Source of the DNA: Schmidtea nova
Taxonomy: Eukaryota
NCBI GenBank assembly: GCA_044892505.1
Contig: CM097883.1
Location: 226,114,001 to 226,178,000, forward strand
Reading direction: 5' to 3'
DNA length: 64,000 bases
Numbering within the stretch: the first letter of the stretch is position 1; each line of letters opens with the position of its first letter. A model generated the notes under the pieces. The model did not search any database, was not told where the DNA came from, and was given only the letters and a program-made list of their open reading frames with translations. This document shows positions 18,860 through 62,321 of this stretch, piece after piece. The position numbers and the translations under genes are program-made.

Positions 18860-18989
18860 ATACTAAATAATAATAATATATATTCACAAATAACAACACA
18901 AATAATATAATCATAAATAAACGGAAAAAAATAATAATAATGATATACATATAAATACATATATTGGTCATAAATATATATAAACTCCA

Positions 18990-21600
18990 AACTCTATTAA
19001 ATAAAAATTTCACAATAAATGTAAATAATAAAGATAATTTTTGCTTCTTATGTAGTGTATTATCTATTTTTAATTATAATGATACTATAGGTAATAGAAA
19101 TAGACCTAGCTCTTATAATATATCAGATCTTAAGTTTGACTCAGCTTACATGTCCATGTGTATTTCAAATATTTCGAAATTTGAAGCTAGAAATATTGGG
19201 CTATCTATTAATGTACTCTCATACGACGAAAATAAGTTTGAAGTCCTTAAACATTCTTTTGTCGACGTAACCTACAGATCGAGTTGTAGGAAATAATATA
19301 ATTAATTTAATTTTGCTTATGGGCTTTTAAATTGTAGTAATAGTAATGTAACAGCTGTAAGGATTTGTAGTAAATGTTGCCTACAGTGTTTGAATGGGTG
19401 AAGGACTGTAAATAGTTTTGATTGACACAACCCTTTATGTGATAAAAATCAATTAGGCATGACTCTCTTCACTTTGCCTTAAAACAAAGATTTAGAATTT
19501 AAGAACTGGACGAAAACAGTTACTCCTCCCTTTGTAATTTATGCCGATTTTGAGGCATACTTACCTAAAGATGTTAAATATTTCCAAAAACATCTCCCAA
19601 TTTCAGCTGGCTTTGTATGTATAGATAACTTTACTGACCAAATATTTCCTAGGTTTGAATTGTGTTAGAAACTTTCTTTTTGAAATTCAATTAATAAGCG
19701 AAAACATAGTTGCTAAAAATTATCAAAATAAAATGATATTCACTAGGGCAGATGAGTTATCTTTCTAGGCATCAACTAACTGTTATTTTTGTTCTAAAAC
19801 ACTTGTAGATCCAGTTAAGGACCATGATCATTTTTCTGGTCAATTCTTAGATGCAGCCTGTTTGAAATGCAATAGGTCAAGACAAATAAAACCAACTTTA
19901 CATTTCGTTTTTCATAATCGTTTTTCATAATACATAATATTCTCAAATTCGGTTTTTCAAATTTTAAAAATTGAAATATAAGTTGTATTTCTGTAACATC
20001 GGAAAAGTTCTTAAGTTTGTATGCAAGAATCGGTAATTTAACAGTAAAATTTACCGATTCTTTCTAATGTGTTAACGATTCGCTAAAAAATGCAGAAAAC
20101 ACTTTCATCATTGCCTTTAACTACATCGGAATTCAGAGGTACAATTATTATTTGCAAGAGAATATTTCCCTATGACGTGGCTACTTGTTTAGAAGCAAGT
20201 CAATCTAATACTGTACTGCCTCCAATTTGGAAGAATTCACACTATGGATCAAGTTATTTGGAAGGAAACCAATTGTAATTCGTTTTTGGATTACATTATG
20301 GTTTACCTTAAATTAGATGTCTTTTTGTTGGTAGATTTTTTCCAAACTTTTAGAGCAAAGTCTATTACTCATAACAAGTTGGAACCCTTAAATTATTTCG
20401 GAATTTCAAGCATGTCCTGAGATTCCGCCTTATTAACTCTGGAAAAACCCATTGAGCTATTGAAAGACATGGAAATTTATAACTTTTTTGAGGGAGAGAT
20501 TAAGGGGTATTCTTTTGTTAATAAACATTATGTAAAATTAGATAGAAATACAGAGTTGTTGTATATAGACTTCAAAAACCTGTATGGATGGGCCCTTAGT
20601 CAAAAGCTTCCAAAGGGTAATTTTACTTGGATCAATGATGATCATTTATTAAATCTAATTTTAATTGATTGGAAGATCCCATCGGAAATACATGATAAAC
20701 TGGACGATTTTCCAGTTGCAGCTGAAAGTTGAGAAAGTGGAGAAGCTGTTGCTCACGCACAACCCCAAGAAGAACTACGTTCTTCATTGGAGGCTTCTAC
20801 AACTATTTATTAATTTAGACGTAAAGATCACAAAAGCTCATAGAGCAATTAAATTTAACCAGTCAAATTTAACACCAATTAAATTTAACACTATCACACA
20901 ACTTCGAGCAATATCCACAAACACACTAGACTGTTGAAAACTTAAAAAAGACAATTAATTTAAGGCTTTGTAGCTCTGCCAATAAATTATTAACTTATTG
21001 TTCAAATGCAACATTTAAAAAAGCACCAAAATTGATGAGGATTTAGTCAAACAGTATTTGATCTATCCAAACTATGTATGTACCAGCTGCAATATATTGA
21101 TTTGCAAAAATATCGAGAAGAATTCGATTGTCAAATTAATATTATTGCGGGTGACACCGATTCCTTTTTCTTGGAAATAATTAATTGTAAATTAAATAAA
21201 TTATTACCAGATATGATTAAAGATAAATTATTGGACACTTCCAATTATGATACTAACCATTCTTTATATTCAAAAAGCCTGGACTATGTCATCGGTAAAT
21301 TTAAAGACCAGAGTAAAGGCCTTGGATATGACGAATGGATCTTTTTAAGACCTAAATGCTATAGAATGAAAGGCGATAATATTATTAATAGTATGAAAAC
21401 TAAGAGGATAACAATCAAAGATGCAGAACTAACACATCAGTCGTATCTTGATTGTTATCAAATAATAAAATACACACAGTTCCCCAATTTTGTATTGCAG
21501 CAAAACTCATCAACTGTTTAGTATTAAAAATAATAAACAAGCTTTAACTATCGCTGATGATAATTGAATTGGTAAAAATAAAAGTTATGCGTATGGGCAT
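18990..21600 (+). pseudogene. Polinton/Maverick-type protein-primed DNA polymerase B relic
   Basis: NKDNFCFLCSV, PPFVIYADFEAYL, CYFC...VKDHDHFSG...CLKCN, KFTDSF, IFPYD, YIDFKNLYGWALSQKLP, KLLLTHNPKKNYVLHW, IAGDTDSFF, IGKFKD, FLRPKCY in order, with many stops and shifts. Confidence 0.85.
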
Positions 21601-22474
21601 TATAGGGGGATTGAAAGATTGTAGATGATCCAGATGTATTTCAGATAAACTAATGTCCGTTCTGCATTAAAAGATGGAGGATCTTTGCCCAAAGATGATG
21701 AAACAACTGGTTTACACTGTACCGAAGCTTCTTCCGTTCAAAATAGAATCCATCACTGGAATTAATCTGAAAGGGATATTGGTAGAGAATTACCAGAACC
21801 TGGATGCAGAATTAATAAACTGAAGCAGCAACATTATATGTTCTTATTGATGCAAAAATTGTCTATATAGGACACAAAAGTATCACAAATTGCTCCTCAG
21901 AAAAGAGTTGCGGCATTCTTGATAATGGTGAGTATTTTAATAAAGGTTTTAAAACAAATCGTCTTTATTTTATTTTTTTTTATACCTGTATGCCTGTTTT
22001 TAGTATTATTAGTATTAGAAGTCAGTTATTAGTCTTGTTTTTATATTTTATTAGATAGTTAATAAGTGACTTGTAGGTTATAGTTTAAATTTTTTATCAA
22101 TAAAGCACTGTGCAAACAAGATGCAAGAAATGTGCAATCAATTTGCAACCAAGTTTCAATGAATGGGCAATCAAGTTGCAATGAATCCTGGTAAATGAAT
22201 TGTTTATTGCTTGTTAAATCTATTTTAAATTTATTTTTTGTCTCAGAATTATTTTTTAAGAAGCAACAACAATAATAATAATAAAAGTTATAATAATAAT
22301 AATTGTAGTCAAACCAATTAAATCAATATAAATATTAAATCAATATTTATAATAATAACATATTTAAAAACTTTTTTTAAATATGCTATTAATTTGATAA
22401 TAATAAATTTTAAAAATACTTATCTTACTTTTATTGTTTATCATTAAAATGCTAAATAATGTAGAAGACAAAAT

Positions 22475-36462: not shown

Positions 36463-36560
36463 CTATAATGAAATTTATTATAAAACTGTAGTTCAATAAA
36501 TTATTATTTAGCAGATTATGAAAAATTAGTATTTTCTCAAAAATAAATATATTTTTGCTA

Positions 36561-37215
36561 NNNNNNNNNNNNNNNNNNNNNNNNNNNNNNNNNNNNNNNN
36601 NNNNNNNNNNNNNNNNNNNNNNNNNNNNNNNNNNNNNNNNNNNNNNNNNNNNNNNNNNNNNNNNNNNNNNNNNNNNNNNNNNNNNNNNNNNNNNNNNNNN
36701 NNNNNNNNNNNNNNNNNNNNNNNNNNNNNNNNNNNNNNNNNNNNNNNNNNNNNNNNNNNNNNNNNNNNNNNNNNNNNNNNNNNNNNNNNNNNNNNNNNNN
36801 NNNNNNNNNNNNNNNNNNNNNNNNNNNNNNNNNNNNNNNNNNNNNNNNNNNNNNNNNNNNNNNNNNNNNNNNNNNNNNNNNNNNNNNNNNNNNNNNNNNN
36901 NNNNNNNNNNNNNNNNNNNNNNNNNNNNNNNNNNNNNNNNNNNNNNNNNNNNNNNNNNNNNNNNNNNNNNNNNNNNNNNNNNNNNNNNNNNNNNNNNNNN
37001 NNNNNNNNNNNNNNNNNNNNNNNNNNNNNNNNNNNNNNNNNNNNNNNNNNNNNNNNNNNNNNNNNNNNNNNNNNNNNNNNNNNNNNNNNNNNNNNNNNNN
37101 NNNNNNNNNNNNNNNNNNNNNNNNNNNNNNNNNNNNNNNNNNNNNNNNNNNNNNNNNNNNNNNNNNNNNNNNNNNNNNNNNNNNNNNNNNNNNNNNNNNN
37201 NNNNNNNNNNNNNNN
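36561..37215. other. Assembly gap (N run) hiding the end of exon 7
   Basis: Run of n. Confidence 1.
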
Positions 37216-38009
37216 AAACATAATATTCATGGGATCATAACTATAATCCAACACTGGTACTTCTTCCTCTTCTATAGTAGCTTCTCGTTTATCTCTTGTT
37301 TTATCTTCACTTTGATCTCTGGATCTATCTTCCTTTCTTTCGTATGATCTATCTTCTCCTTTTTCTCTTGATGCATCTTCTCTTTTATCGTATGATCTAT
37401 CTTCTCGTTTATCTCTAGATCTATCATCTCTTCTATCACACGATCTATCTTCTCGTATATCTTTTGATCTATCTTCTCTTCTATCACGTGATCTATCTTC
37501 TCGTTTATCTCTTGATCTTTCTTCCCTTCTATCGTCTCGTCTATCTCTTGACCTATCTTCCTTTCTATCTACTCGTCTATCTTCTCGTCTATCTTCTCGT
37601 CTATCTTCTCGTCTATCTTCTCGTCTATCTTCTCGTCTATCTTCTCGTCTATCTTCTCGCCTGTCTTCTCGTCTATCTCTTGATCTTTCTTCTCTTCTAT
37701 CATCTCGTCTATCTCTTGGTCTATCTTCCTTTCTATCTTCTCGTTTATCTTCTCGTATATCTTCTCGCCTATCTCTAGATCTATCTTCTCTTCTATCATC
37801 TTGTCTATCTCTTGGTCTATCTTCCTTTCTATCTTCTCGTTTATCTTCTCGTCTATCTTCTCGTCTATCTCTAGATCTATCTTCTCTTCTACCCTCTGGT
37901 CTATCTTTTGGTTTATCTTCCTTTCTATCTTCTCGTATATCTCTTGATCTATCGAATTGTCTATCTTTACTGATGCATTCTTTTTGTTTTGTTGGTTTTA
38001 TTGATTGGG
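37216..38009 (-). CDS. Divergent RNGTT-like gene, exon 7: RE/RD/RS mixed-charge repeat linker
   Basis: taatttag|CC acceptor in phase with exon 6; 794 nt with no stop in the REDR frame (checked codon by codon); built from a 12-bp CGAGAAGATAGA unit; runs into the gap. Confidence 0.8.
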
Positions 38010-38059
38010 CTAAATTAAAGAATAAACATAAAAAATCATTCCATTCAGTAAATATCCAC

Positions 38060-38211
38060 TTTCAGCAGGAAGTTTAATTTCCCATTCTGGAGGAGATGGA
38101 TAATGGATGGGCAAATTCGGTTGATGTATTTTCAACAAATATTTTAAAAATTTTGGATTATAAATTCCGGGAGGACGAGATTTAGCAAACATTTCCAATG
38201 CTTCATGCAGT
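38060..38211 (-). CDS. Divergent RNGTT-like gene, exon 6 (end of triphosphatase domain)
   Basis: LHEALEMFAKSRPPGIYNPKFLKYLL...PSPPEW matches RNGTT FAQARPPGIYKGDYLKEL...PPPLLPDW; flanked by 44-bp and 50-bp GT-AG introns. Confidence 0.9.
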
Positions 38212-38255
38212 CTGATTGAATCAGTTACATAAATTTCATATAGATTAGAACTTAC

Positions 38256-38331
38256 TGCATCCCACGTTGCGTTACAAGGTAATTGACTATCATGAATCCG
38301 GTCAGGTTGTAACCATGAGTGCAATGAACCG
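38256..38331 (-). CDS. Divergent RNGTT-like gene, exon 5 (triphosphatase P-loop, Arg->Leu)
   Basis: tttcag|CG GTT CAT TGC ACT CAT GGT TAC AAC CTG ACC GGA = (A)VHCTHGYNLTGFMIVNYLV; CA|gtaagt donor. Confidence 0.92.
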
Positions 38332-38406
38332 CTGAAATAAAATATGAAGGGGTTTCTTTATATGTTTAATACAAATTTTAAAGGATAAGCAATGTTACAA
38401 ACTTAC

Positions 38407-42639: not shown

Positions 42640-43047
42640 CTAAATATATGTGTTTTTAATCAGTGCTCCATAAAAATGAGTATTTTGTTTAAGAATTTCT
42701 AGTAATTTTACATGATTATTAATAATAGAAACCATTTCATTTGTTTTATATTTAAGAAATTCAAAGAAATCTTATCCAAACTTAAGATCTAATAATATGG
42801 TAATGCTATAACAAATCATTGCCCATATTTATAATGAATATTCTCATCAAATAATTATAGTCTGTTGATTATTCCAAGTCTCAATAATAAAAATCTGTCA
42901 CCGATTTCAATTCAATTATTTTCAAATAACTGATTCTGATCTCTAATTTTCGTCATTTTTAATCTTTTTGCGAATTCTTATAATTTCATGTTTTCAGACA
43001 ATAGATCTAATCAACATTTTCCTTCAATTTTTATATTTTTTTTTGAC

Positions 43048-43142
43048 ACAACCTTTATCAAGTGTGTATTTAATAATATACACTTAATAAAGGCTGTGCA
43101 GAAATATCGTGAACCAACAACCAAAAAAATTTGATCTATATT
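43048..43142. repeat. Third, degenerate copy of the hairpin/hammerhead-like repeat
   Basis: CACAACCTTTATCAAGTGTGTATT-TAAT-AATATACACTTAATAAGGCTGTGCAGAAATAT...TTTGATCTATA; inverted junction at a different point than copy 1. Confidence 0.65.
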
Positions 43143-43431
43143 CATTAAATTATTTCTATGAAAAGTATTGATTTGAATATTTATTTATATTAGTTGGGAG
43201 AAGTGTGAACTCCCGAACAAAAGAAATTAAGTAATCGATGAGTCATAACCAATCAAAATCAAGTGACTCATACTTTACTTTTACACACCCTCATAAATCA
43301 TGATGTCATCGATGACGCCATATTATAAATTTATACATTATGTAATCGATAATGTAATACCAAAATTTTATATTAATGTCAAGGTCAAACTTTTAAGATC
43401 AAACTTTTTTTTAAAAAAATTCATAAGTTCT

Positions 43432-44460
43432 CAATTCGAATGAAAATTATCAAAAGGCAAGCTGGTAGTCCCTTTTTCATTTATATTTAAGACTGAAAGT
43501 CAATGGTGTAACTAAGAATTTTGGACTTAGACATAAAACTTTTCCGGGACCCTTCAATACACGAAAAAGGATTTTTTCTATTTATAAAAAAATATCAAAA
43601 ACCTTTAAAAAATTTAAAAACTACAAAAATTTTTAAAAAGTCAAAACTGATATTATCAACATTTATGAAACTACAACTCTATGCTAGTCTAGCGCTATCT
43701 ATTCTCCAAATCGGTGTTATAACTTCTTTGGGATCGATTTTATATCCTTGGATTGTTATATTGAGAATCCAATTTTCGTAATTTTTATATTCTAGTGATT
43801 GAAAAGCATCTTGATTTTGCGAATATTATTTATTGCGATTGTTGATGAATATATTTTCGCTGCAAGTGAAATTTTTATTGATATTCTTCAAAACTTTGTT
43901 GACACTTACAAACATCTTGTTTATATATTTTCCCAATCAAGTTTGAATATTGCGACTTGATTAATTTGACTGGGTTGATGAATTTATATTCAATTTCCAT
44001 TTCAAAGAAAAACATTTGATGTTCATGAAACATTTTAACGGACTTGACATTTTGGTTTAATCCTCTTGTCATTTGAGTTATCAAACATTTTCATGATTGG
44101 ACTAGATTTCTGGTAACGGAAAACAGATTGAATTTTATGATTATCACAAATTTTGTTCTGTTATTTATACTCACTGTTGTTTGTGTGTAGCCAATCAGGT
44201 TCATGCATTTGTATTAAACATTGCATGTATGTGTTGCGCATGTAAGAAAGTTCATGACCTTTGTTCTTGTGTATGTATAACTTTTTGAGTAATATTAGGC
44301 ATCTGTATTGCATATGTATTACATCTCTACTGCAATACTTATAAATACTGGTCAAAAACTTATTATTAAAAAATTACTTTTCATTGAAATAATTATTTTT
44401 AAAACAAAAATGCAAGTCTTAAACAAAAACTACTTAAACTAAATAAAAAGATGTAAATTA
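43432..44460 (+). repeat. ~1-kb unclassified repeat, copy 1 (inverted partner at 48770-49850)
   Basis: Shared blocks such as AAAACTTTTCCGGGACCCTTCAATACACG and CTAGATTTCTGGTAACGGAAAACAGATTGAATTTTATG recur as reverse complements; ends approximate. Confidence 0.8.
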
Positions 44461-44760
44461 AAAGACTGTCGAATCTATAGAAACTTATCATATTGCTGTT
44501 ACAGATTAGTAGATCCTCGTCTTGATTGTATCTCTATTGTAACTAAATATTTAATCAATACTAATTATAACTCCTAATAAATATTGACATAACTTATAAA
44601 AAAACTGACATTTCATAGAAAGGAAGAAATGAACAACAAATTTTATGGTTTTTTCAAATTTTATTCAAATACAAAATTGCCGCCATAATGTTATAAGAAT
44701 TATAATCAAATAATATTACAAAAAGATATATTAATTATTATAATAGAAAAATTTATTTTA

Positions 44761-44762
<2 letters not shown>

Positions 44763-44839
<77 letters not shown>
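44763..44839. repeat. (ATT)n microsatellite
   Basis: About 25 ATT units. Confidence 0.95.
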
Positions 44840-44840
<1 letters not shown>

Positions 44841-44899
44841 GTTGGATATTTAAATTAACTTGTGTTTAAATAATTGATTATTTGGCACTTTTTTATACG

Positions 44900-46944
44900 A
44901 TTAAGGAAAGATTTAGCTGAAGTTATAAATTCAGGACGATCAGAAAAAGATATTGTTCAAAATCTCATCGAAAATAAAGCACGCGATGCGAGACTAAGGG
45001 AGATATTGTTGACAAAACCAGAAACAAAAACTTAAGAAACAAGATCATTGGCAAAGAATTTTGAGTAGCAAAAATGGAAGCAATAAAACTGAATTTATTA
45101 AAGAAATTGGTAAAAAGAACATATGCTAGCGTGATTGAGGGAGGGGAGATGAGAATTCAACAGAATACTCAAGATACCAGACATACAGCATCAGAAAGAA
45201 GACTATCAGAAGAGCCATTTAGTCATCACAGACCAAGAAGAGACGAATATCCTATACGCAAATCAATACAATACGAAGAAAATAACCGCGGTCGATGAGA
45301 ACAATCTTTGAGAAACGTGAGAATCCAAGATGGCTCAGAAAGGAAACTGCGAACAATTTTCAAGAAGAATATAGCAAGAAGACTCTATAACGAAAGTAGA
45401 GGACTACCCCAAGCATCGGCTCCAAAATAACACAGTGGGGATTATTTTAGCTGTGGCGAAAGGGGACACAGAAGATATGAGTGCCAACTGGGAAATAAAG
45501 GCCTGATATGTGGTAAGGAGGGACACGAGTTCGAGATTGTTTTTCATTACGGAAAGAGGTTCCCAGTCGATTTCAAAGAATTGCGTGCATAGAAGAAGAA
45601 GATTCCAAATCTGAAAGAAGAGATTACACCGAAAACAGCCAGGATTTCAGAATGGCTCACAGCGATATGAAAGATAGATACAATGTTCCTGAGAAATATA
45701 CTACATTGAGAGAAGACGGAAAATCATCAGCTACTCCATGGGTTTCATTTCGTCGGTGGAGTCAGGACAATAAATTGTGAAAGAAGAAATGAACGAAGAA
45801 GAGACGAGGCAGAAGAAGAGATGTATCAGACGAAGGATGGAAGAAGTTGGAGTAAATTAATGTTGAATAATGCAGAAGTATATATGTTATGGGACTCTGG
45901 GGCGTCAGTAACAGTCGTGAGCAAGAATTTGTGAGAGAGAATAGACATATCAGACCTTCAACGTAGTACTATATTAGAATGCGGAGTGTTTTCAACTGGA
46001 AGTGAAAAGGCAATGCGATATATAAATATACAGGCCGCATGGAATCAGAAGACCAAAATTATCACAGTAGTGGTTGTAAAAGAGATCAAGCCCGAATTCA
46101 TAGGGGGTATTGATACAGTGAAATAGTTTGGAATAAAGTTATTGAAGATCAATAATATAGAAACAAAATCCACATTGATGAAGAATAAATAAAGCTCTGA
46201 TGGTGATGGAAAGTGAGAATAATAAAGACATTGAAGGAATGATCAGGAAATACGGCGGAATCTTTATGGCATCGAAATTTGATCTGGGATTTACAAATTT
46301 AGTTTGACATGAGATGCTGATAACACGAGGCCCAATAATGCAACATCTTCGACGTCAACCAATGGAGAAAAAGATTGAAGAACTGATAAAAGAGTTAACG
46401 AAAGCAAATGTGATTCGGTGTTGCAAGAGTCCTTGGAATGCACCGTTAGTTATAGTAGGGAAGAAAGATGGATCCATTAGGATGTGTGTAGACATTAAAT
46501 GCCATAACAGAAAAGGAATCATTTTCGATGCCAAATACCAAATTCTTACTAGACTGTCTTGCGAATGCAAATATATTTTCGTCAATTGATTTAGGCCAGG
46601 CGTACTATCAAGTAGAGTTGGCCCAAGAAATTCAAGAAATGACTGCATTCAGTACAAGAGAAGGACAATTTTGCTTTAATAGATTACCGTTTGGCTTAGC
46701 AACAGCCCTTGCGACATCCCATAGAGTGATGCACAAAGTACTAGAAGGAATGCTATTCAAAGGAGAAGTTGTTTATCTAGATGATATTTTGATATATGGG
46801 AAATGTCAAAAAGAGCTAGGGGAAATATTTAGAAGAATCCAAATGGCAGGACTGAAGATAAATCCAGAAAAATACGAATTCAATAAAACAGAATTGTTTT
46901 TCCTTGGGCACACAGTTAACGAGAAAGGTATCCAGACAAACTGA
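44900..46944 (+). pseudogene. Degraded Gypsy gag-pol
   Basis: gag knuckles CGERGHRRYEC / CGKEGH, protease DSGASVTVV, RT WNAPLVIVGKKDGSIRMCVD, RLPFGL, YLDD; many stops. Confidence 0.8.
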
Positions 46945-47164
46945 AAGAAAGTTGAAAAGATCGAGAAAGTAGAAATACCAAATTGTTTGTTTCAATAATA
47001 AATATTAAATCAGAATTCAGTAGAAATAAAATATCCAACAAAAAGTAGGAAGTCAATTTGAAAGAATTTCGTATTTCGGATAAGAGTCTTTTTAAGACCG
47101 AAATATTCAATTTAATAAACATTGCTGAGAAATGCCTAATACTGTTACCTTATTATTATATTTT

Positions 47165-47752
47165 AATAAACTCTGCTAACGACAAAACAATTTATATTTA
47201 TCATCACTGCATTTTTGAGTGAAATCAAAAGAAAAACATAACCATGTGAGATTTTAATTGCATGTTAAAATGATTTCAGAAGGAAATTCCGATTATTATG
47301 GTATACCTGTCTTGCAAGAAAGTCAATAACTATGGCATTTCTAGGATGTTTAAAAACATCTATATATTGAACATTCAAATTACGAGTTCAATGGGATCCA
47401 CCTTGATGAAATAAATTTTGAATAATAAAAATAGCTGTAACATCCTTAAGTTTAGCGATTTTTGTAAATAAATTATTAAAATCTTTTTCTTTATTCGCTT
47501 CTTGATACAAGTCGTCAATAATAATCACATCACCACTTCGCAATCTAGACAACCAATTTTTATCGAATCCCTTTATTATCGTCATTTTAATATAACAGAA
47601 TTGATCTTGATTCGTTCTATATTCATCATCAGCTCCCCTATACCAAATTTTGATTTGAACAATTTTGATTTTAATAATTTACAAGCAAATAAAATTTTAC
47701 CACTTCCACTTGGACCAAGAATTTGATAAACTGCATCATTTCTTAATTCCAT
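47165..47752 (-). pseudogene. Polinton/Maverick DNA-packaging ATPase (A32/FtsK-HerA type) relic
   Basis: ATG at 47752: MELRNDAVYQILGPSGSGK (Walker A), VIIIDDL (Walker B), FIIQNLF, *TRNLNVQYIDVFKHPRN, LARQV, HGYVF; frameshift and stops. Confidence 0.85.
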
Positions 47753-47852
47753 TTTCAAAATATTACTTGTTTAAAGTTATTGTTTATATTTGTTGTAATT
47801 CATTGTTATACTTTTATGAAAATTATTTGATAAATAATTATTTTGTCAAATA

Positions 47853-48270
47853 ATGTTAAGCAACATAAATTACAAAGGAAGATGTTCTGTTTCTCATGGG
47901 AAATTTCCAAAAAACAATAGGAGCGGAAGTATCCAGTTATATTTTTAAAGTTGGCTAAATGTAGAATAATGGGATGTAAACAGTCGCTTAAATTTGAAGA
48001 TTTATTATATGAAGTAAGTGATCTGCAAATATAATCAATTACAGTTTCCATATATATTGGAAAATGTGTCAATTTACATGAATTATCACGAAATCTTGTA
48101 TGTCAATATAAACCCGAAATATTTCCGACATTGAAATATATAAAGTATAACCCCTTATGTTTCAACATATTTAAGTGATAAAGTAGTTATAATTGGTATA
48201 AAAACGTTAAACTAATGTTTTGGTTGACGAAATTATTAACGGTGATTGTGGACGTGGAATTTTTAAAAAT
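47853..48270 (+). pseudogene. TATA-binding-protein (TBP)-like gene relic, divergent from the ATPase
   Basis: MLSNINYKG...PVIF...KCRIMGCK...I*SITVSIYIGKCVNLHELSRNLVCQYKPEIFPTLKYIKYNPLCFNIFK/SDKVVIIGIK parallels the TBP repeats (IQNMVGSCDVKFPIRL...YEPELFPGL...LIFVSGKVVLTGAK); two frameshifts and a stop. Confidence 0.7.
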
Positions 48271-48338
48271 GTTATTACTCATTACATAATTACGTAGTTA
48301 AATGCTTGATTTTGGTTGGATGATAATGTGTTCAAATA

Positions 48339-48341
<3 letters not shown>

Positions 48342-48398
<57 letters not shown>
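48342..48398. repeat. (TA)n microsatellite
   Basis: About 28 TA units. Confidence 0.95.
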
Positions 48399-48400
<2 letters not shown>

Positions 48401-48769
48401 TTTGTCATTTTCATTATATTTATATTTAAAAATGTCTGTCTTATCTAATCGTTAAAATATTCATTCAGTTTAAATAAACTGAATGCCGTTCTTATTTCAA
48501 AGATAGAGGATCTCTATTCGAAATTGATACGAAAACTTGTATACTGCGCTCCAAAACTTCGGCCATATAAAATTCATGCAAGTACATGAATCGATCTCAA
48601 AAAAGTCTTGGTAAATCATTTACGCAATCAATATCAGGATCTTCCAAGCTGCAACAGCAATACGATAGTGCATATAGATGCGACCCAAAATACCATAAAT
48701 AGTTACTCCGAAAGGAGTTGAAAAAATGTTAAATGTTATTTTAATACATAGTTTTGTTTAAAAATTGCT

Positions 48770-49249
48770 TTTGTAGTTGCATCTTTTTTAGTTAGTAGAC
48801 TTTAAGTAATTTTTGTTTAAGAATTTTATTTTTTGTTTTAAAAGTAATTATTTGAATGAAGTATTTTTTTAATAATAAGTATGTGACAGTATTTATAAGT
48901 ATTGCAGTAGAGATGTAATACAGATGCAATACAGATGCAATGCAGATGCCTAATATTACTCATAAAATTATAAATACATTTGAAAAAAGGTCATGAAATT
49001 TCTTAAATGCGCAACACATACATGCAATGTGTAATACAAATGCATGAATCTGATTGGCTACACACAAACAATAGTGAGTATAAATAACATAACAAAATTT
49101 GTCATAATCATAAAATTCAATCTGTTTTCCGTTACCAGAAATCTAGTCCAATCATGAAAATATTTGATGACTCAAATTACAAGAAGATTAATCCAAATGT
49201 CAAGTTTGTTCAAATGTTTCATGAACATCAAATGTTTTTCTTGGAAAAA

Positions 49250-49326
<77 letters not shown>

Positions 49327-49850
49327 TTAATCCAGTCAACTTAGTCAAGTCACAATATTCAGACTTGACTGGGAAATAGTTGTTGTATGTGTCAACAAGG
49401 TTTTAAGAAAAATCAATAAAAACTTCACTTGCAGCGAAAATATATTCATAAACAATCGCAAAGCACGTTTTCATGATGCCTTTTATTCACTACAATATAA
49501 AGATGACGAAAATTAGTTTCTAAATATTACGATCCAAGGATATAAAATCGATCATAAGGAAGTTTTGACACAGAATTTGAGAATGGATGGTGCTAGATCA
49601 ACTTAAATTAGCAAAGAGTTGTATTTTAATAAATTTTGATAATATCAGTTTTGAATTTTTAAAAGATTTTGTAGTTTTTAAATTTTTTAAAGTTTTTTGT
49701 ATATTTTTATAAATAGAAAAACTCCTATTTTTCGTGTATTGAAGGGTCCCGGAAAAGTTTTATGTCCAAAATTTCTAGTTTCACCATAAATGAAAAAGCT
49801 GCTACCAATTTGCCTTTTGATGATTTTAATTTGAATTGAGTTACAAAAGC
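48770..49850 (-). repeat. ~1-kb unclassified repeat, copy 2 (inverted), with an internal (TA)n expansion at 49259-49322
   Basis: Reverse complement aligns with 43432-44460 with indels. Confidence 0.8.
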
Positions 49851-51235
49851 TCACCATAGACGTGCATGACAAGTGTGAACGTAAAAAACCAATAGTCCAA
49901 GATATATTTGTCGGGACTCCAGGACAGTTTCCTTACCATCATAACGTAGAGAATAATTCGTCTACTCTGTCAAACAATCTATTTAAAATTAAAATGACAA
50001 AGAAAATTATCAAACTTTCCAAAAGATTAATAGAGCCTATATTAAGAACTATATCTTAATTTTTAATTACTTGATTTCCCCGTATATACCCCTCAAGCGG
50101 TCATAACCCGTACCCTCACTTATCCATTGAATTTTAACCAAACCAGTAAAGAAAAATTTATATTACTCGAAACCTTATAAAACTCTTATTTCCTGCGGAG
50201 TTTGTATGGTAAATTACAGCCCACGGGATATGTGCAGTAAAATGCGGTAAACATGTCTGAATGATAATTACGGTAATTACGTTTGTATTCTTTAATGCAA
50301 AGTGTTTTCCCATTCATATATTATGCAAAACATTATTATATAAATAGGTGGCACTTTTTATCTTGCACTCGATAATCTGACAGTCTTGTTATCCGTCACA
50401 TTTTTAACTTCATGGATTATATTATGCGTTGACTACTCTCGTTTATCCGGCACTCTTATTTTGACACTGGTGGTTTTTTGTCTAAGGGAACAGAGATTCC
50501 TTCTCTTTAGTCCGTTGTCAATGATTGGGTATCATATTGTATATCAGTTTCAATGCAGTATGAATTTTTGCTAATTTATGAGTTAAATGCAAGCTATTTG
50601 CAAGTAATGACAATCACGACTTAACGCCAGCCCTTTAGGGAGCCAGCAAAAGCATGCAACATTCAGTGCTGAAACGAACCATAATAGTAAGTTACCTGCG
50701 GGATCAAATCCATAAATATATATTCATCCTTGAAAATGGAGCGACAGTGCTGATTTAAAGATAATTATTAACGAAACTTTCTATTTGCTAACAGTCACTA
50801 CCAATCCATTATGCCCTCTTCACAATCTTGAAAAGTCTTTGCCTTTCTTCATCAGTTCTTTATTTTTATAACATTGCTTATTGAGAGATTATAACTGGAC
50901 AAGATGCAATTCTTCGAAGAAAATCAATTTGGCAATGAACGCATTCAGTTTCATCAAATTAGGTCAGTTCTTAAAGTTCCCGTTAAGTTGAACCACCGCA
51001 TAACTAATCAATCCAAACAAAATTTTAGCTGTTCCCCTTTTGTTAAATAGCATCTGAAATAATGTTTGGATTGTATAGTTATACGGTATTCCGCTTTACG
51101 ACCAATAGCTTAAAGGCGCACCTAGGTCATAAAAGGGTGTATAAGGACTATTAAAATGAAAAATTAAATTTATTTATTATGACTTTATTTCAAAAATAAT
51201 ATATTATATTAAATTTAAGAAGCAATTATTAATAC

Positions 51236-54313: not shown

Positions 54314-57300
54314 TTATTTGCTTATATGGTATCGCTTAAGCCATTCGATATTTCTAATCAAGATTTTATCATTTGGCATTTTTATTTTATAACTCCTATC
54401 ATGGTTCTTTTCTATTACTTCACATGGACCATCAAACCTATCGTCGTCTTTCGTTCTTACGTCCTTTTTAACTAAAACTAGATCCCCAATCGAGAACTCA
54501 CGGTTTATTCTTGTCGAGTTGTTATATATCAATTTGTCTTCATTTAAGCGTAATTTTGAATCTATAATCTCTCTTCTTTCGTTTTGTTCTTTCATATAAT
54601 CACTCACTTCCATTTCGCCAAAAACTGTCGAAGGCCATTCTCTGTAAATTTTCTTTCCATAAACTACTTCTGCTGGACTGAATCCAATTGTGCTTTGAAT
54701 TGTTGAATTTAACATGAACTCTACTTCTGGTAATATATCGGCCCAATTACTGTTATGCATTTTATCTTTTATTGATATTTGAATAGCATCTCTAATAGTT
54801 CTAAATTGTCTTTCAATCACGCCGTTTGCCGAATGATGATATGGGCTACTATATGTTATCTCCATTTTATGTGTTCCTGTAAGTGTTTTTATTACGTTAG
54901 ATTCAAACGCTTTTCCTTTATCAAAATATATCAATTTTGGTGCTCCAAATCTTAAAATCCAATTATCTTTAATTACCTTTGCAGTGGTATTTTCATCTTG
55001 TCTTGCTATAGCATTCAAAGAAATATATCGACTAAATTGATCAATTATTGCAAGAATGTATTTCTTTCCATTAACTGTCGTTTTGAATGGTCCACAAATG
55101 TCTACAAATACAACTTCAAATAATTCTGGTATTCTATGTTTCATTATCGTTTCTTTCGTGCGTGTGGTAACAGATTTTCTTTTTTGACATTGTTCACAAC
55201 TTTGAACAACATTCTTAATATTTTCCATTTTGTTTTCCATATCAAACTTCTGTGATATATAGTCATTTACCTTCCTTACTCCAGCATGACAAAGTGTACG
55301 ATGCGTATATTCTATAAAATTTTTTACGTTGTCATTTGGTATCCATATTTTGTCTTTCATTGTTTTTATAACCTCATCTTCAACTTTTAAGCCTAACTTT
55401 TCATCGTCGTTAATCTGTTTCTTTATAATTAATATATCTTTTGAATCCTTTTGCCATGTTGAACCATTGTCTCCTAGCATGAGAGCTAATATTCTTGTCT
55501 TTAATCTCCCTTTCTTTGGTTCTTCGTGAATGGTCTGACATTGTACGCAAGTCACGCAGTCTTTCCTTGACAATGCATCAGCATTACTATGTAGGTCACC
55601 CTTTCTGTATTCCAATTTCATATCTAAACTACTTAAATGATTTATCCATGTTTGGAATTGTGGTGTTATTGGTTTTTTAGTTTTTATCATAAAAGTTATC
55701 GCTTTGTGGTCTGTTCTAATCCGAAATCGTTTACCATATAAATAGTGCTTAAAATGCAAGGTAAAATAGTAAATCGCAAGTAGTTCTTTTCTAGTAATAC
55801 AATAACCTAATTCGTGGGTGTTCATCGCATGAGAGCCATAAGCTATCACTCTTTCATTTCCACTAGCATCTAACTGTGATAATACCGCTCCTATCCTATC
55901 AAAACTGGCATCGGTATCTAAAATGAATTCTTTCGAAAAATCAGGAAATGCCAAAATCGGGGATAACATTAATTTTTCTTTAAGGTTTTGAAAAGCTATT
56001 TCACATTCGTCTGTCCAAATCAATTTCGTTTGGTTGCTTCCGCAAAGTTTTTCTAGGTCTTTTGAATATTTCGAATAATTTTCTATGAATCGTCTATAAT
56101 AATTAGTTAAACCAAGGAAGCTCCTTAACTTCTTCAAACATTTCGGTCTCTCGTATTGTTTAATTGCCTCCAATTTGCTATCATCTGTTCTTATACCATT
56201 TTTGTTAATAATGTGTCCTAAAAATTTGATTTCTTCTTTCATGAAGTTGCACTTATTCATACTCAATTTTAATCCAGCTTCTTTTATTCGATTTAGAACA
56301 TTTCTAACTCTCCTAACGTGCTCTTCTTTTGTAGGAGAAAAAATTAATATATCATCTAGATATACAACAGCTTCTTTCCAGTTTAAGGGTCCTAGTACCC
56401 TGTTCATTAATTTCTGAAATGTTGCAGGTGCTGCTGCGATTCCAAAGGGCATACGATTAAAGCAATATTGTTCGTTCTTTGTTGAGAATGCGGTTTTTAT
56501 CTTTGAAAGTTCATCTAATTCTACTTGGTAAAAAGCATTACCTAAATCTAAAGTAGTAAAATAAATTGATCCATTTAAAATATCCATCATTTCTTCGGTG
56601 CTTGGTATTGGAAAAATCGGTCTTTCGGTTACTAAATTTAATGCCCGAAAATCTAAACAGATGCGGATATCATCTTTACCTTTCTTTTTTACACATACAA
56701 GAGGAGAGTTCCATGCAGATTCACATTTCTCGATAATTCCATACTTTTCCATCTCTTTTATATTTTGATCTATTTGCTCTATCAAATGTATTGGTTGGCG
56801 ACGTGGATTTATTACCACCGGTGGTCCTTCAGTATTAATGTTATGTTTAATTAACGTTGTTAAACCAATATCCCATTTATGTTTCATAAATATTGGATCG
56901 AATTCTTTCAAAATATTTTGAATTTCATGATCTAACGTTAGAACATTATTTTGATTAGCATTTTCTTCAATGTAAGCAATCTCATCTTTATTTTTATTTT
57001 TCCGTAAAAATATCTCAAATTCATTTAAAAAGTTGATTCCTCCTATCATTTTTGGTATTACTCCATTTGTTACGTAAAAATCTATTATTTTAGAAGAATT
57101 CCCTAGATTTACTTTTATTATTGCTTTTCCAATAACCTTAATCGGGCTCCCATTTGCACATTTCACTTCTATATCACTTTTGTCTATTTTAATTTCTCTA
57201 ATGTTTTTTATTATTTCATATTCAATCACACTTATCTTTGCACCAGTATCTAACATACACCTGATTATATTATTATTAATTTCTACTTCCACACTGGGCC

Positions 57301-57532
57301 TACCACCCATATAATTATACGTTATATTTGACCTATTGAAGTCTTTAATAACACAAATTTCAGTACCTATTCTATTAGTTTGTTTATTGTCCTTTAGACG
57401 GGATACTTTATTTATATTGTTATAAAAATTATTATTATTATTATTCAAATTATCTGCAATTACATTACATTCATTAAAATCAATATCATTCACACAATCA
57501 CAATCATTAAATTTCATACATACATTGCTCAA
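54314..57532 (-). CDS. pol: Gypsy Pol polyprotein (PR-RT-RNase H-IN), uninterrupted
   Basis: LDTGA, YLDD, DTDAS...ELL...TDH, HRTLCH...CEQC, VDICGP / DKG / IERQFR; the frame is open from ~57598, consistent with expression by -1 frameshift. Confidence 0.95.
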   Translation of the reverse strand: MSNVCMKFNDCDCVNDIDFNECNVIADNLNNNNNNFYNNINKVSRLKDNKQTNRIGTEICVIKDFNRSNITYNYMGGRPSVEVEINNNIIRCMLDTGAKISVIEYEIIKNIREIKIDKSDIEVKCANGSPIKVIGKAIIKVNLGNSSKIIDFYVTNGVIPKMIGGINFLNEFEIFLRKNKNKDEIAYIEENANQNNVLTLDHEIQNILKEFDPIFMKHKWDIGLTTLIKHNINTEGPPVVINPRRQPIHLIEQIDQNIKEMEKYGIIEKCESAWNSPLVCVKKKGKDDIRICLDFRALNLVTERPIFPIPSTEEMMDILNGSIYFTTLDLGNAFYQVELDELSKIKTAFSTKNEQYCFNRMPFGIAAAPATFQKLMNRVLGPLNWKEAVVYLDDILIFSPTKEEHVRRVRNVLNRIKEAGLKLSMNKCNFMKEEIKFLGHIINKNGIRTDDSKLEAIKQYERPKCLKKLRSFLGLTNYYRRFIENYSKYSKDLEKLCGSNQTKLIWTDECEIAFQNLKEKLMLSPILAFPDFSKEFILDTDASFDRIGAVLSQLDASGNERVIAYGSHAMNTHELGYCITRKELLAIYYFTLHFKHYLYGKRFRIRTDHKAITFMIKTKKPITPQFQTWINHLSSLDMKLEYRKGDLHSNADALSRKDCVTCVQCQTIHEEPKKGRLKTRILALMLGDNGSTWQKDSKDILIIKKQINDDEKLGLKVEDEVIKTMKDKIWIPNDNVKNFIEYTHRTLCHAGVRKVNDYISQKFDMENKMENIKNVVQSCEQCQKRKSVTTRTKETIMKHRIPELFEVVFVDICGPFKTTVNGKKYILAIIDQFSRYISLNAIARQDENTTAKVIKDNWILRFGAPKLIYFDKGKAFESNVIKTLTGTHKMEITYSSPYHHSANGVIERQFRTIRDAIQISIKDKMHNSNWADILPEVEFMLNSTIQSTIGFSPAEVVYGKKIYREWPSTVFGEMEVSDYMKEQNERREIIDSKLRLNEDKLIYNNSTRINREFSIGDLVLVKKDVRTKDDDRFDGPCEVIEKNHDRSYKIKMPNDKILIRNIEWLKRYHISK

Positions 57533-57546
57533 AATATTACTTACAT

Positions 57547-58602
57547 TTAATTTATTGCTCCAACCACCTCTCCTTGTGATGGAGCATATCCGTTTGGGTC
57601 ATCCTCTTTTATTGATCGTTCGTAGTCCTCTCCGATTACCGCAACGTGTCGATTTTTCTGGAATCGGTTCTCTGTTGACACATCATAGCATTGGTACTTG
57701 AAATGGCCTCTCTTGTGGCAATGACTGCATTGTACATTCGGACATTCGGATCGTATATGTCCTTCTTCTCTACATGCCCAACACTTCCTGTGTCTTGCAT
57801 CTGTTCTTGAATTTCTGTAGTTATCTCTATTTTGGTAATAATAATTGTTGTCGCTTCTTTGTTGTCGGTTATTGAATGTTCTATCATTGTTGAATAGGGG
57901 TTTATATTCTTGTTTTCTAAATTTATCTTGATCTGGCTGATGCCACCTTTGTTGAAATTCGGATTCTTGCCTTGTACCGTCTCTGTATTTCATTTTTGAA
58001 TCGAAACGATTCCCATTATTTCGTTGCCATGATTGACCAGATCTTATATTGGCTACATTTGCATATGTGTTCTTCTTTTGTATTACGGCTACACTTTCTG
58101 CTTCGATTTCTTTCTTGACTTCATCGTTTCTCGTTATTCTTACTTTGATTTCTTCGAATGTAGACAAACCTTGCATCTTTAAATCTTTCTTTAATTCTTG
58201 ATCGTCTAATGCATTTTGAATCAGGAAAATTTTCAAATCTTCTTCTTGAAGTTTGTGACGTAAAATATTCTTTGCTAATCTTTCAACTTTTCTAAAGAAT
58301 TCGGCTGTTGTATCTTCTCCTCGGCGATAAGATAACGCCTTATTTAGGTCGTTTCCTAAATTACTCGGACTTGTAAACGCTGATTGCATTCTCGTTTTAT
58401 AATTTTCTTCGTGTTCTGTTTCCTCATATTTTCTTGTTGCTTCTATTGATAAAAAAGCTTTTACAAAAATACCTCTGTGTTCTTCGGCCGTCTGTGTCAA
58501 TTCAAAAAATCTTTCTGTTTCTTCAATAAATTTGTCGATATCATTTCCTATCTCAAATATTTCTGGAGGTCTGATAAATTGTAACATTGGCGTGGTCGCC
58601 AT
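57547..58602 (-). CDS. gag: Gypsy Gag with two CCHC knuckles
   Basis: MATTPMLQF...CWACREEGHIRSEC and CSHCHKRGHFKYQC; the first internal ATG overlaps the LTR/PBS junction. Confidence 0.9.
   Translation of the reverse strand: MATTPMLQFIRPPEIFEIGNDIDKFIEETERFFELTQTAEEHRGIFVKAFLSIEATRKYEETEHEENYKTRMQSAFTSPSNLGNDLNKALSYRRGEDTTAEFFRKVERLAKNILRHKLQEEDLKIFLIQNALDDQELKKDLKMQGLSTFEEIKVRITRNDEVKKEIEAESVAVIQKKNTYANVANIRSGQSWQRNNGNRFDSKMKYRDGTRQESEFQQRWHQPDQDKFRKQEYKPLFNNDRTFNNRQQRSDNNYYYQNRDNYRNSRTDARHRKCWACREEGHIRSECPNVQCSHCHKRGHFKYQCYDVSTENRFQKNRHVAVIGEDYERSIKEDDPNGYAPSQGEVVGAIN
57556..57598 (-). promoter_or_regulatory. -1 programmed ribosomal frameshift signal
   Basis: Slippery heptamer C CCA AAC in the gag frame (57598-57592), 5-nt spacer, then hairpin TGCTCCA-TCAC-loop-GTGG-T-TGGAGCA; the -1 frame is the pol frame and opens exactly here. 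Confidence 0.75.
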
Positions 58603-60173
58603 ATTAGGTTGATTATTAATTTTTTTATACATTAATTGAAAACACGCTTTCGTTCAAAAATATATATTATTAAAACAAATATTTTTCTTTTGTAATTATC
58701 TCGGAGAATATATATATATATATATTAATATAAATAATACTTTGAGCAATTTCAACATTCATACACAACATATACATACTGTTACACTCATACTGATTTT
58801 TATAATATATAATTAATTTATCAATTTCATCTCACAAAAGAGAAACGTGGCCTTTATTGTGGATAATTGTGCAGTTCATCCTGATGTACAGGGACTTACG
58901 GTAAGCATCATTTTATAAATTCTTACATTTTATACATTCTTACATATAGGCCATAAAACTAATTTTCCTTCTTCCCAATACGACGAGCAAAACTCAGCCA
59001 ATGGATCAAGGCGTTATTCAAAACTTGAAAATGCACTACCGCTCTCGATTACTCTCTCTTCTTCTCACAGATCTTGAAGATGGCAAAGAATTTCGAGTAA
59101 ACCTTTTGGAAGCTTTGCACACAACGAGATATACTTGGAATTCTGTAAAGCAGATTACAATTACAAATTGCTTTAGGCACTGCGAATTCAAAATTTCAGA
59201 TGACATGCCCTTAATCGCTGAAGAGAACATTGAAGAACTGATCAGGAAGAGCAGTACCAGGTAGGCTGAATAAATAATAGAAATTCTATATTCCAAATGT
59301 GTACAGGAACATATGGGACCGACTTCAACAACTGGGGCTCGTCAAAAGCAATGACACATTGGCCAGTTACATCGCAGTCGATAATGATGTAGCCATCTCT
59401 GGCATATTAACGGAAGAAGAAATAGTAGCAGAGGTCGTACACAAGAAGAAAGGAGCTAATGTCGTCGATGAGAGTGATTGTGAAGACGTTGATGATAAAC
59501 TGTCTATCCCATCATCCAAAGCAGCGCGTGAAGCTTGTATGACCCTCCGTACTTTTTGCTCTCTTGTTCTGATGCTCACGCCTCTCTAGAAGAATTAACC
59601 AATATTGAGAATTTTGTAATGAATGTGCAAGTTGATCGACAGCGTCAACTGACGATACCATAAATGTTTAAGTAATAAATTTTATATAAGAGAGCCTTTG
59701 AATATCACTGCTAATATGAATATTAAATCGTAATCGGATAATTCGAAGTAAAATTTTGGTACCCAGCATTTCGAATTAACGAGGTTTTACTGTATAAAAA
59801 TTGTTGAGTGTTAGATCAAAAAGTTGTACATTTTATTTTTGGTTTCAGGTAAATATTGTAATTGTAATTTTGGTAATTGAATAAGTTATTAACCAGTCCA
59901 AATTTGGTTATTTATATAAGATCAAGTTGAGATTCGGTTCTAAAATTCACCAATAATTATTATTTCCTTCTAAAGTCTGTTGTTTTTACCTCCCAAACTG
60001 TAAAATTGAAACAAAGTATAATATTGCTTTACAACCAGACTTCTAATGTGATGCGATTGAAAGATTGAGGTAAAATGTACAAATCTGTGTGCAAAATAAT
60101 GTAAAGACAAAATAATTAATCAAAATATTAATATAATTTTTTGAGGAAAACAGATTTTAGTGGATAGTAGTAG

Positions 60174-60669: not shown

Positions 60670-60722
60670 CTGAAAAAGAGGGGAAAGTGCTAAAAATCAA
60701 AAAGAAAAAACTATTCACTCAC

Positions 60723-60925
60723 ATTTTGCGGTTGAAATGTGATTCGGTTTTGATTTATCTGTCCTTTCTCTAATGATGTTCCACTGCAACGTTGCCTTAT
60801 CTAATGTGCATTCGACAATTTTGTTGTTGTATTTTTCACGCAAATCTTTCTTGATGTGATTGATTTCACCGAAAAACATTTTCTCCCCACTGACATAGAG
60901 TTTCCCGACAAATCTCGGCACAACA
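60723..60925 (-). CDS. RNGTT: mRNA capping enzyme, canonical copy: OB-fold exon
   Basis: ccctcag|T VVPRFVGKLYVSG...KYNNKIVEC...WNIIRERTDKSKPN (motif VI); 73-bp intron upstream. Confidence 0.9.
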
Positions 60926-60998
60926 CTGAGGGAAAGTAAACAAAGGAAAATTTTGGTTTTAAATGGCAGATTTAAAAAAAAAATAATAAATAATTTAC

Positions 60999-61914
60999 TC
61001 GGCGCCTTTTTCATATTCACATTTCAGTTGGAAATCGATTGAATTCAATTCAGGAGGTTTCCATTTCAAAATATACGGACAGGTTCCGGTTTGATAGAAA
61101 TCTTCCGGTCCACAAGGTTGGAATATCAATCCATCCATTTCATGGCACAATTGCTTCCGAAATTTCCCGCTCCAGATCTCACGGGTCTTTTCGATTGGCC
61201 AGAAATCCTTTATCCGAATCCCAAATGATTCGTGTTTGCGCATCTCCGGTGTCACGAATTTGCTTCTGGTGTCGATTAAGCATTTTTTGATGGTGTTAAA
61301 CCGTTTATTGAAGACCTCGTTCCCGACATATTCACCATCGATTGTCATAATGTCGTAGATTAAAAATCGCGGAAATTTCTGGCCTTGATATGTGTCGATA
61401 ACCATCTCACCGTCCACGAGAGTATTTATATAATGTTCGTCTTCGTTTTTCGGGAAATTTATATTCTCGACTTTATAAACGCAATTGTCTCGATCGAACA
61501 TATAGACGAGATCTTTATCGGCTATCAGCATTAAATATCGAGTTCCATCGGCTTTCCAGCTGACCATATATTTTCTTTCAGTTAAAAACTTCAAATTCTG
61601 AGTTGTCATTGACACCGGTTGACTGCCGACGAATTCATATTTCGATACTGACATCAGATCGCGTACTTTCACTTGAACCTCTTCAATCACTGCAGTATCC
61701 ATGACTACCGAAACCTTGCTGACACCTTCCATAAACATTGCTTTTTTCGGAGCAACAAAAGGTTTCCTTGGTTTTCGTTTATGATTTTGTACTTTCAATT
61801 TAACATTTTCAGAACTATTTGTGCTTCCGGAATTATCGGAATCTGATTCACTGTTACTATCCAATTTATCATTTTGATCAGGAATGTACGACTCGTCCTC
61901 ACCGTCACAATCAT
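60999..61914 (-). CDS. RNGTT: mRNA capping enzyme, canonical copy: linker + guanylyltransferase exon
   Basis: ttattag|AT acceptor; FVGSQPVSM, motif I SWKADGTRY (Lys at 61553-61555), FDRDN, LVDGEMV, LIYDIM, EMDGLIFQP, LKWKPPELNSIDF all intact. Confidence 0.95.
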
Positions 61915-62321
61915 CTAATAATGCGCCATAAATAGATATGAAAGGACTTTTGGAAAAAAACATTGCCAAAAAAATAATTACACCAATGATTGTATGTCCA
62001 TCACAAAACGGTAATCCTCAAAGATTAGTTTTGGTAATAAATTTATATAAATTAATGGAAAGGATAATTTTTTAGATAATTTATTATCGGAGTCGAGTTG
62101 CATTCAAAATTCCCAAAGTTGAAAATAGTTTCTGTCAAATTTATTCTTAGACCCTTTATCGTGGAACCTGAGACAACTCTTTTAAATAGGAGAAATGCAT
62201 AGAGAAATGATTTGCAACGGAAAAGCTAATCCAACAACCAATGATAGACACAGGTTACCACCACGTGACGACAAATAAGGTTCGAAAATAAAAGTTAATA
62301 AGAAACAGGTACCAACTAGAA

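Follow-up and report, generated by a model that had tools for sequence, protein, structure and literature searches.

A TBP-like gene of a Polinton lineage in Schmidtea nova and a candidate late-promoter motif, (T/C)ATAAAC

In the 64,000-nucleotide stretch of Schmidtea nova DNA analysed here (the window), a gene resembling the TATA-binding protein (TBP) lies head-to-head with a Polinton packaging ATPase gene. The locus raises the question of whether the TBP-like gene belongs to the element, and what such a protein would do there. It has long been an open question whether animal Polintons are genuine viruses whose life cycle is regulated. The analysis confirmed that the TBP-like gene is a real and regular gene of a Polinton lineage, and it revealed a short word upstream of packaging and virion genes that is a candidate for the site which the protein reads.

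The window copy and its relatives

The stretch at 43192..49850 is a dead, internally deleted fragment of a very abundant Polinton (Maverick) family (Table 1). This copy is dead because its ATPase and TBP-like genes are broken and the middle of the element is missing. The Gypsy-type piece occupies the place of the absent middle (polymerase, capsid, integrase), and no match to pPolB, capsid or integrase was found between the terminal inverted repeats (TIRs) of the window copy. The start of the left TIR resembles the AGTAG terminus of intact copies. As the initial annotation had described, the ATG of the ATPase (47752, minus strand) and that of the TBP-like gene (47853, plus strand) are both present with 100 nt between them, and the genes are similarly decayed, each carrying frameshifts and stops. 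In comparison with one natural copy, the TBP-like gene is 78% and the ATPase 84% identical, with 7 and 2 gap openings, respectively. The word ATAAAC in the spacer between the two genes is oriented toward the ATPase only. No Rfam match was found in window 43000-50500.

Table 1. Features of the decayed Polinton fragment, in window positions
Feature	Position	Strand	Evidence or remark
Left TIR	43192..44400		Inverted arm 43527-44334 vs 48914-49769; inner boundary approximate
Relic of the 147-aa ORF (orf147, one per TIR)	43682..44051	-	tblastn E 4e-36
Decayed Gypsy-type LTR retrotransposon piece, not Polinton	44890..46990	+	RVT_1 E 2e-21 at 46492-46941; boundaries approximate
Broken A32-like packaging ATPase (intact relatives 207 aa)	47150..47752	-	78-88% aa identity, two frames
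ATAAAC word, candidate late-promoter box	47782..47787	-	35 nt upstream of ATPase ATG
Broken TBP-like gene (intact relatives 156 aa)	47853..48290	+	One frame with X at stops: Pfam TBP E 4e-4
orf90 relic (small gene 3' of the TBP-like gene in S. nova families)	48469..48628	+	tblastn E 8e-16; blastn to intact copies
Right TIR, outer end apparently lost	48914..49850		Inverted arm 48914-49769
Second orf147 relic, inside right TIR	49133-49597	+	One orf147 per TIR

Elsewhere in the window, a second decayed Polinton fragment (16751-21913) consists of pPolB pieces, spread over several frames, with an orf90 relic after them, and there is a Gypsy-type element (54314-58653, minus strand) whose gag (368 aa) and pol (1094 aa) frames are open. 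The guanylyltransferase and C-terminal domains of an mRNA capping enzyme (PF01331, PF03919) were recognised at 60715-62017 (minus strand). Downstream of them, the stretch 38010-38357 (minus strand) is presumably triphosphatase-like, with no Pfam match; an Arg/Asp-rich ORF (36526-38061) adjoins it.

The S. nova genome contains intact relatives of the window pair. The DNA search gave 4,234 candidates, a figure that does not represent a copy number, and 40 of them were scored. At each of the other 19 loci fetched, an intact 156-aa TBP-like ORF lay head-to-head with an intact 207-aa ATPase, 96 nt apart. The TBP-like genes of this 19-copy subfamily are 98.3-100% alike (mean 99.4%), which indicates that the subfamily spread recently. 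The TBP family search gave 14,003 candidates, again not copy numbers, of which 150 were scored; the 30 fetched loci comprised 7 host TBP/TRF genes and 23 element copies at 52-76% identity, with the ATPase present at 20 of these copies. The search with the ATPase gave 15,482 candidates (not copies), and the TBP-like gene was found at 20/20 fetched loci. The ATPase is thus flanked by the TBP-like ORF at 39/39 own-genome loci fetched through the pair or the ATPase, as the initial annotation had anticipated. The own-genome loci fetched from the distant-ATPase and PF03175 searches all belong to the same TBP-bearing clade. Scans of viral contigs, queried with the ATPase and with alignments of the ATPase and of the TBP-like protein, yielded no relative, and phage records yielded no match; these searches thus supplied no Polintons lacking the gene with which the motif described below could be compared.

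Long TIRs with AG...CT ends, a 6-bp target duplication and a length of 15-20 kb are hallmarks of Polintons/Mavericks. The TIR matches found here extend over 1.1-1.4 kb, both ends were located in 3/4 copies, 16-19 kb apart, and the 6-bp target duplication was perfect in two of the three copies with both ends and agreed in 5/6 letters in the third. The proposal of a Polinton lineage with its own TBP was borne out, as the gene is regularly present inside TIRs with pPolB (PF03175, E 1.4e-15 in an intact relative and absent from the deleted window copy), integrase (rve, E 2.1e-8, with a weak chromodomain match), ATPase (Pox_A32, E 1.4e-6, in the intact ORF), an adenovirus-type cysteine protease (PF00770, E 6.6e-6) and a probable capsid. 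The latter, a 406-aa ORF, is probably a double jelly-roll (DJR) major capsid protein: it has no Pfam or PDB sequence match, its Atlas neighbours at 0.98 bear DJR-like_dom in 15-30% of members, and a 28%-identical relative has a weak Capsid_N match (E 0.007). For the N-terminal ORF of pPolB, where alpha adintoviruses have an OTU domain, a general Pfam scan listed no OTU family.

Several observations on individual fetched loci can be added. Both TIRs contain a copy of the 147-aa ORF, preceded by CCAAT and TATA boxes (L022:1486-1929, L023:7044-7487). In S. nova copies the integrase is divided at a constant point following the LQTDLG motif (L021:7654-8708, L186:881-1928), and in metagenomic relatives it is a single ORF, so that the split is likely an intron; the protease gene also appears to carry a GT-AG intron. 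Outward-pointing pairs of intact pPolB genes of about 1244 aa, some 5.5-6 kb apart, were found at G000:C2:401695875-401709473 (L181/L182) and G000:C1:287926030-287938968 (L194/L195). No match to ATPase, capsid or TBP-like gene was found between these paired genes, and several more such pairs are listed among the own-genome PF03175 matches; they are possibly a polymerase-only palindromic derivative.

Beyond the genome, relatives of the TBP-like protein fall into 83 protein clusters (E 1e-5 or better), most of them of 144-165 aa, and more distant members were found among 50%-identity representatives. A core Polinton gene was present at 33 of 80 metagenomic loci and any element gene at 53; among the 33 loci of at least 3 kb, 25 had a core Polinton gene, 5 the TIR gene only and 3 none. 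Where the TBP-like gene and the ATPase occurred together (25 loci), they were in tandem in 23 cases and head-to-head in 2, with starts 385 and 1700 nt apart. The head-to-head order is therefore mainly a trait of the S. nova families, and the compact bidirectional promoter suggested in the initial annotation did not hold as a general feature. The distances of the TBP-like protein and of the ATPase co-vary over 22 loci (Mantel rho 0.79; 0/2000 permutations), which fits long co-inheritance. The TBP-like gene is under purifying selection and is a conserved part of the element: dN/dS was 0.10-0.28 in 12/15 pairs, the other 3 being saturated, and 0.03-0.06 for the ATPase in 10/10 pairs.

In a 76-row tree, whose "cellular" rows are two-repeat proteins and whose bootstrap is unsettled, 35 family rows lie on one side of a 99/96 branch, apart from host TBP/TRFs. 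Short forms group together in a subclade with 99/99 support, outside which fall the longer forms (about 155-205 aa). Labelled large-virus TBPs are absent from the tree; for this reason, and because of its cellular rows and unsettled bootstrap, the tree does not name the donor of the gene. Two host TBP paralogues, both divergent and each with the two repeats in a single frame (L115, L116; G000:C1:473.81 Mb and C2:358.71 Mb), are sisters in the tree (100/99), and L114 and L117 resemble a duplicated second host TBP gene. At L108:1-5645, a TBP-like match is accompanied by zinc-finger ORFs and by an ATPase that is far more distant (27%); ATAAAC precedes none of the ORFs of this locus, which may be another kind of element.

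Fold and DNA face of the TBP-like protein

The 156-aa protein is predicted to form a full two-lobed TBP saddle. Its closest PDB sequence match is the TBP 2z8u (E 8.6e-16), and the predicted model (pLDDT 97.3) superimposes on human TBP 164-338 with a VIA Z of 12.6 and rmsd 2.6 over 145 aligned residues. In the model the TBP fold spans residues 1-147. The intact copies are intronless and devoid of an N-terminal extension, in line with what had been read from the relic, which had also been described as short; shortness was upheld, and the length of about 140 codons was not, the intact ORF having 156 aa. Both saddle repeats had likewise been claimed. Pfam detects the C-terminal one in the intact ORF (residues 64-126, E 3.6e-16) and does not detect the N-terminal one, which is recognisable by structure only. 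According to the model and the alignment, the N-lobe of the short form consists of strands only, its two helices being absent, and up to residue 80 the model contains no helix as long as 4 residues. Long-form members, judged from the alignment, retain helix-like segments in this lobe. One 219-aa family member (P0197) apparently carries an extra C-lobe copy.

Residues are compared below in yeast numbering, anchored by the 1rm1 alignment row and by alignment to canonical TBP; the numbers of the N-lobe positions are the usual ones. The glutamates E93 and E95 correspond to E186 and E188 of the TFIIB-binding stirrup and are kept in 141/151 and 149/151 rows, respectively, and at 90% or more in the family alignment A1. 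Three of the four intercalating phenylalanines are kept (F38, F97, F113), and the first (yeast F99) is Pro in 138/151 rows. On the DNA face, which is hydrophobic in canonical TBP, N69 of the central Asn pair is kept and its partner N159 is replaced by S (S/T in the family); V71 is replaced by N, V122 by R, T124 by M and V161 by T. Moreover, R101, C109 and N111 sit at yeast I194, V203 and L205. Together with M46 these three are invariant in 68/68 alignment rows, and N6, R44, S68 and T70 each reach at least 90% conservation in the same rows; the 68-row alignment was used for N111 and F113 because their counts in the 151-row set, with rows picked by pattern, are partly circular. The altered-specificity mutant TBPm3 is described in the available text of its report as carrying changes at I194, V203 and L205, which alter TATA specificity (PMC1636458).

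The genome search with PF00382 gave 25 TFIIB candidates and 6 matches, against 14,003 TBP candidates, and the three TFIIB matches examined are exon-like host genes. Among named proteins, the host TFIIB is closest to those of flatworms (53-54%), in keeping with a flatworm host. No Pfam-detectable TFIIB was found in the elements by this search, which a very divergent TFIIB could escape.

The (T/C)ATAAAC word and the genes it precedes

The word ATAAAC was found 15-55 nt before 23/23 de-duplicated ATPase starts (shuffles: mean 1.7, maximum 5). In the same interval it precedes 9/9 orf181, 12/15 orf139 and 5/9 capsid starts, the capsid count rising to 8/9 within 130 nt, and only 2/51 TBP-like starts. 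The latter are preceded by TATAWAW in 21/51 cases (shuffle mean 8.2, maximum 15). With stricter de-duplication and queries from distant clades, the word stood about 35 nt before 57/63 genes of the packaging/virion module and before 1/68 TBP-like, polymerase and TIR genes (polymerase 0/6); the gene classes were drawn after the motif had been seen and the loci are related, and Fisher values for this comparison are therefore not probabilities. Canonical TATA showed the opposite tendency, with 9/63 packaging/virion genes and 28/68 TBP-like/polymerase/TIR genes, although at TBP-like genes it was present in only 24/48. Integrase (word 6/13), orf130 (1/7) and orf90 (0/12) belong to neither class; the first two and the capsid (7/9 in the stricter set) are exceptions to the word, and no ATAAAC was found directly upstream of the start of the protease in the single copy examined. 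The results show that the motif marks one gene class and avoids another.

The base preceding ATAAAC at 57 sites was T in 41, C in 13 and G in 3, and the following base was A in 49, G in 7 and T in 1. The motif occurs on the sense strand only. At 311 unselected metagenomic ORF starts, a peak was visible 30-44 nt upstream, with 69 sites as compared to 1 for the reverse complement. Where the motif overlaps the 3' end of the ATPase gene, it is kept in 37/38 rows, with a constant AAA codon, through Y/H and Q/R changes, which points to a constraint at the DNA level. A reading of the word as a poly(A) signal was considered and rejected, since the preceding base is never A in the 57 sites and head-to-head copies have no upstream gene on the same strand.

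From these regularities we infer that YATAAAC is a candidate late-promoter box which would be read by the TBP-like protein. Redirection of a host polymerase by this protein, as the initial annotation had suggested, is plausible and now has a candidate target motif. Pol II would be favoured over Pol III as the recruited polymerase, since the putative targets are protein genes, some of them with GT-AG introns.

A putative late-promoter factor, competing readings and known systems

The 156-aa protein is probably an element-specific late-promoter factor, predicted to bind YATAAAC and to recruit host TFIIB and Pol II. According to this model, host TBP would first transcribe the TBP-like gene from ordinary TATA promoters. 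The polar DNA face of the protein would then read the motif, which has C at TATA position 7, the kept acidic stirrup would dock host TFIIB, and Pol II would start just upstream of the packaging and virion genes. TATA-driven expression of the TBP-like gene followed by reading of YATAAAC would constitute an early-to-late cascade. Loss of the N-lobe helices may free the protein from host regulators that grip this lobe. However, long-form members that retain helix-like segments there use the same motif, and the loss is therefore not needed for motif use. The absence of one of the four intercalating phenylalanines counts against a promoter factor. The wider proposition, that a broad clade of animal Polintons carries a one-protein orthogonal switch, namely a minimal TBP rewired to YATAAAC and borrowing host TFIIB, has in our judgement about even chances of being right.

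The most serious competing explanation, though an unlikely one, is that the TBP-like protein does something else and that the reader of the motif is a host factor, be it TBP with a tolerance for TATAAAC, a divergent TRF or a forkhead protein. The near-TATA form TATAAAC accounts for 41/57 sites, and the host has two divergent two-repeat TBP paralogues. In addition, the forkhead consensus RYAAAYA accommodates ATAAACA. Against host reading, the first T is missing at 16/57 sites, GTAAAC, the usual forkhead form, occurs in only 2/63 regions, the orientation and distance of the motif are fixed, and the motif is shared by elements with ATPases of only about 35% identity. There is a small chance that the protein acts as a decoy or repressor, soaking up host TFIIB or Brf1 through the stirrup, or occupying TATA boxes, and so damping host or early transcription. 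Conservation of the stirrup glutamates while the N-lobe helices and one Phe are gone would agree with such a role, yet a decoy has no need for invariant non-canonical residues on its DNA face and would not account for the class-specific motif. It appears slightly less probable still that the protein binds DNA during replication, integration or packaging, for example at TIR ends, and has no role in transcription. At many loci its gene is next to the ATPase or to orf147 of the TIR, and rolling-circle initiator folds are the next and best non-TBP structural matches, but these are much weaker (Z 6.3, rmsd 4.9), the EPE(L/I)FP stirrup is kept, and the motif precedes start codons and is not at termini. 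Finally, a processed host TBP pseudogene lying beside the ATPase by chance, for which the lack of introns speaks and nothing more, is refuted by the intact, linked state of the gene at the 39/39 loci, by purifying selection and by the separation from host TBP/TRFs.

If the wider proposition of an orthogonal switch is true, these "transposons" would have to be regarded as viruses whose genes follow a true early/late programme, and the protein and its motif would be the smallest known orthogonal TBP-promoter pair. A dedicated late-gene factor with a one-word late promoter would make the regulated life cycle of Polintons directly testable, as the motif would predict the sets of genes expressed together and the positions of their start sites. 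The protein would also be a minimal TBP of natural origin in which the docking of TFIIB is uncoupled from regulation through the N-lobe. With about 14,000 first-look candidates, which is not a copy number, a stray active factor could touch host genes that bear the word.

No published description of the TBP-like family or of the YATAAAC motif was found in our literature search; figures, Repbase and a recent review of the PLV supergroup were outside it and may note the gene. Searches for "TBP-like" with Polinton and for ATAAAC with Maverick returned nothing relevant, and the polinton-like virus (PLV) papers checked by term do not mention TBP. The abbreviation TBP, together with Polinton/Maverick, led only to the adintovirus paper (Starrett et al., 2021; PMC8502044), in whose available text TBP is only a figure-legend label in the section on non-animal datasets, without discussion, and in whose main text the word "promoter" is absent. 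As far as that text describes alpha-type adintoviruses and animal Polintons/Mavericks, the present elements have in common with them the pfam03175 pPolB, integrase, packaging ATPase, adenain protease, probable DJR capsid, TIRs and 6-bp duplications, as well as a PLA2-like gene in the distant clade (PMC8502044).

The protein also resembles ORF24 of KSHV, a vTBP of beta/gamma-herpesviruses, in being a viral TBP mimic with a polar DNA face. In the available account, ORF24 directs host Pol II to late, structural genes through the TATA variant TATTWAA, and is a large multidomain protein of a six-member complex that binds Pol II directly and lacks the TFIIB glutamates (PMC12529657). The present protein, in contrast, has 156 aa, keeps the glutamates and has YATAAAC as its candidate motif, and the N-terminal Pol II-binding and extra C-terminal DNA-binding domains of the ORF24 type are absent, the TBP fold filling residues 1-147. 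The likeness to the herpesvirus vTBP is thus one of putative function, not of family membership. TBPs of large dsDNA viruses have a TBP fold that has lost the regulator-binding signature of the N-lobe, as here, and the BFVD fold matches of the present protein are such large-virus TBPs, at 8-23% identity. According to the available text of Ravarani et al. (2020; PMC7221094), the stirrup glutamates of TBP contact TFIIB and Brf1, and in most large-virus TBPs the two glutamates that bind TFIIB have diverged, a virus-encoded TFIIB accompanying these proteins. The present family, in contrast, keeps both glutamates, and its elements have no Pfam-detectable TFIIB. With cellular TBP/TRF and archaeal TBP (PF00352), the protein has in common the two-lobed saddle, the C-terminal stirrup and three of the phenylalanines, whereas it is about 30 residues shorter, lacks the N-lobe helices, has Pro in place of the first Phe, is changed at eight DNA-face positions and stands on a separate branch of the tree.
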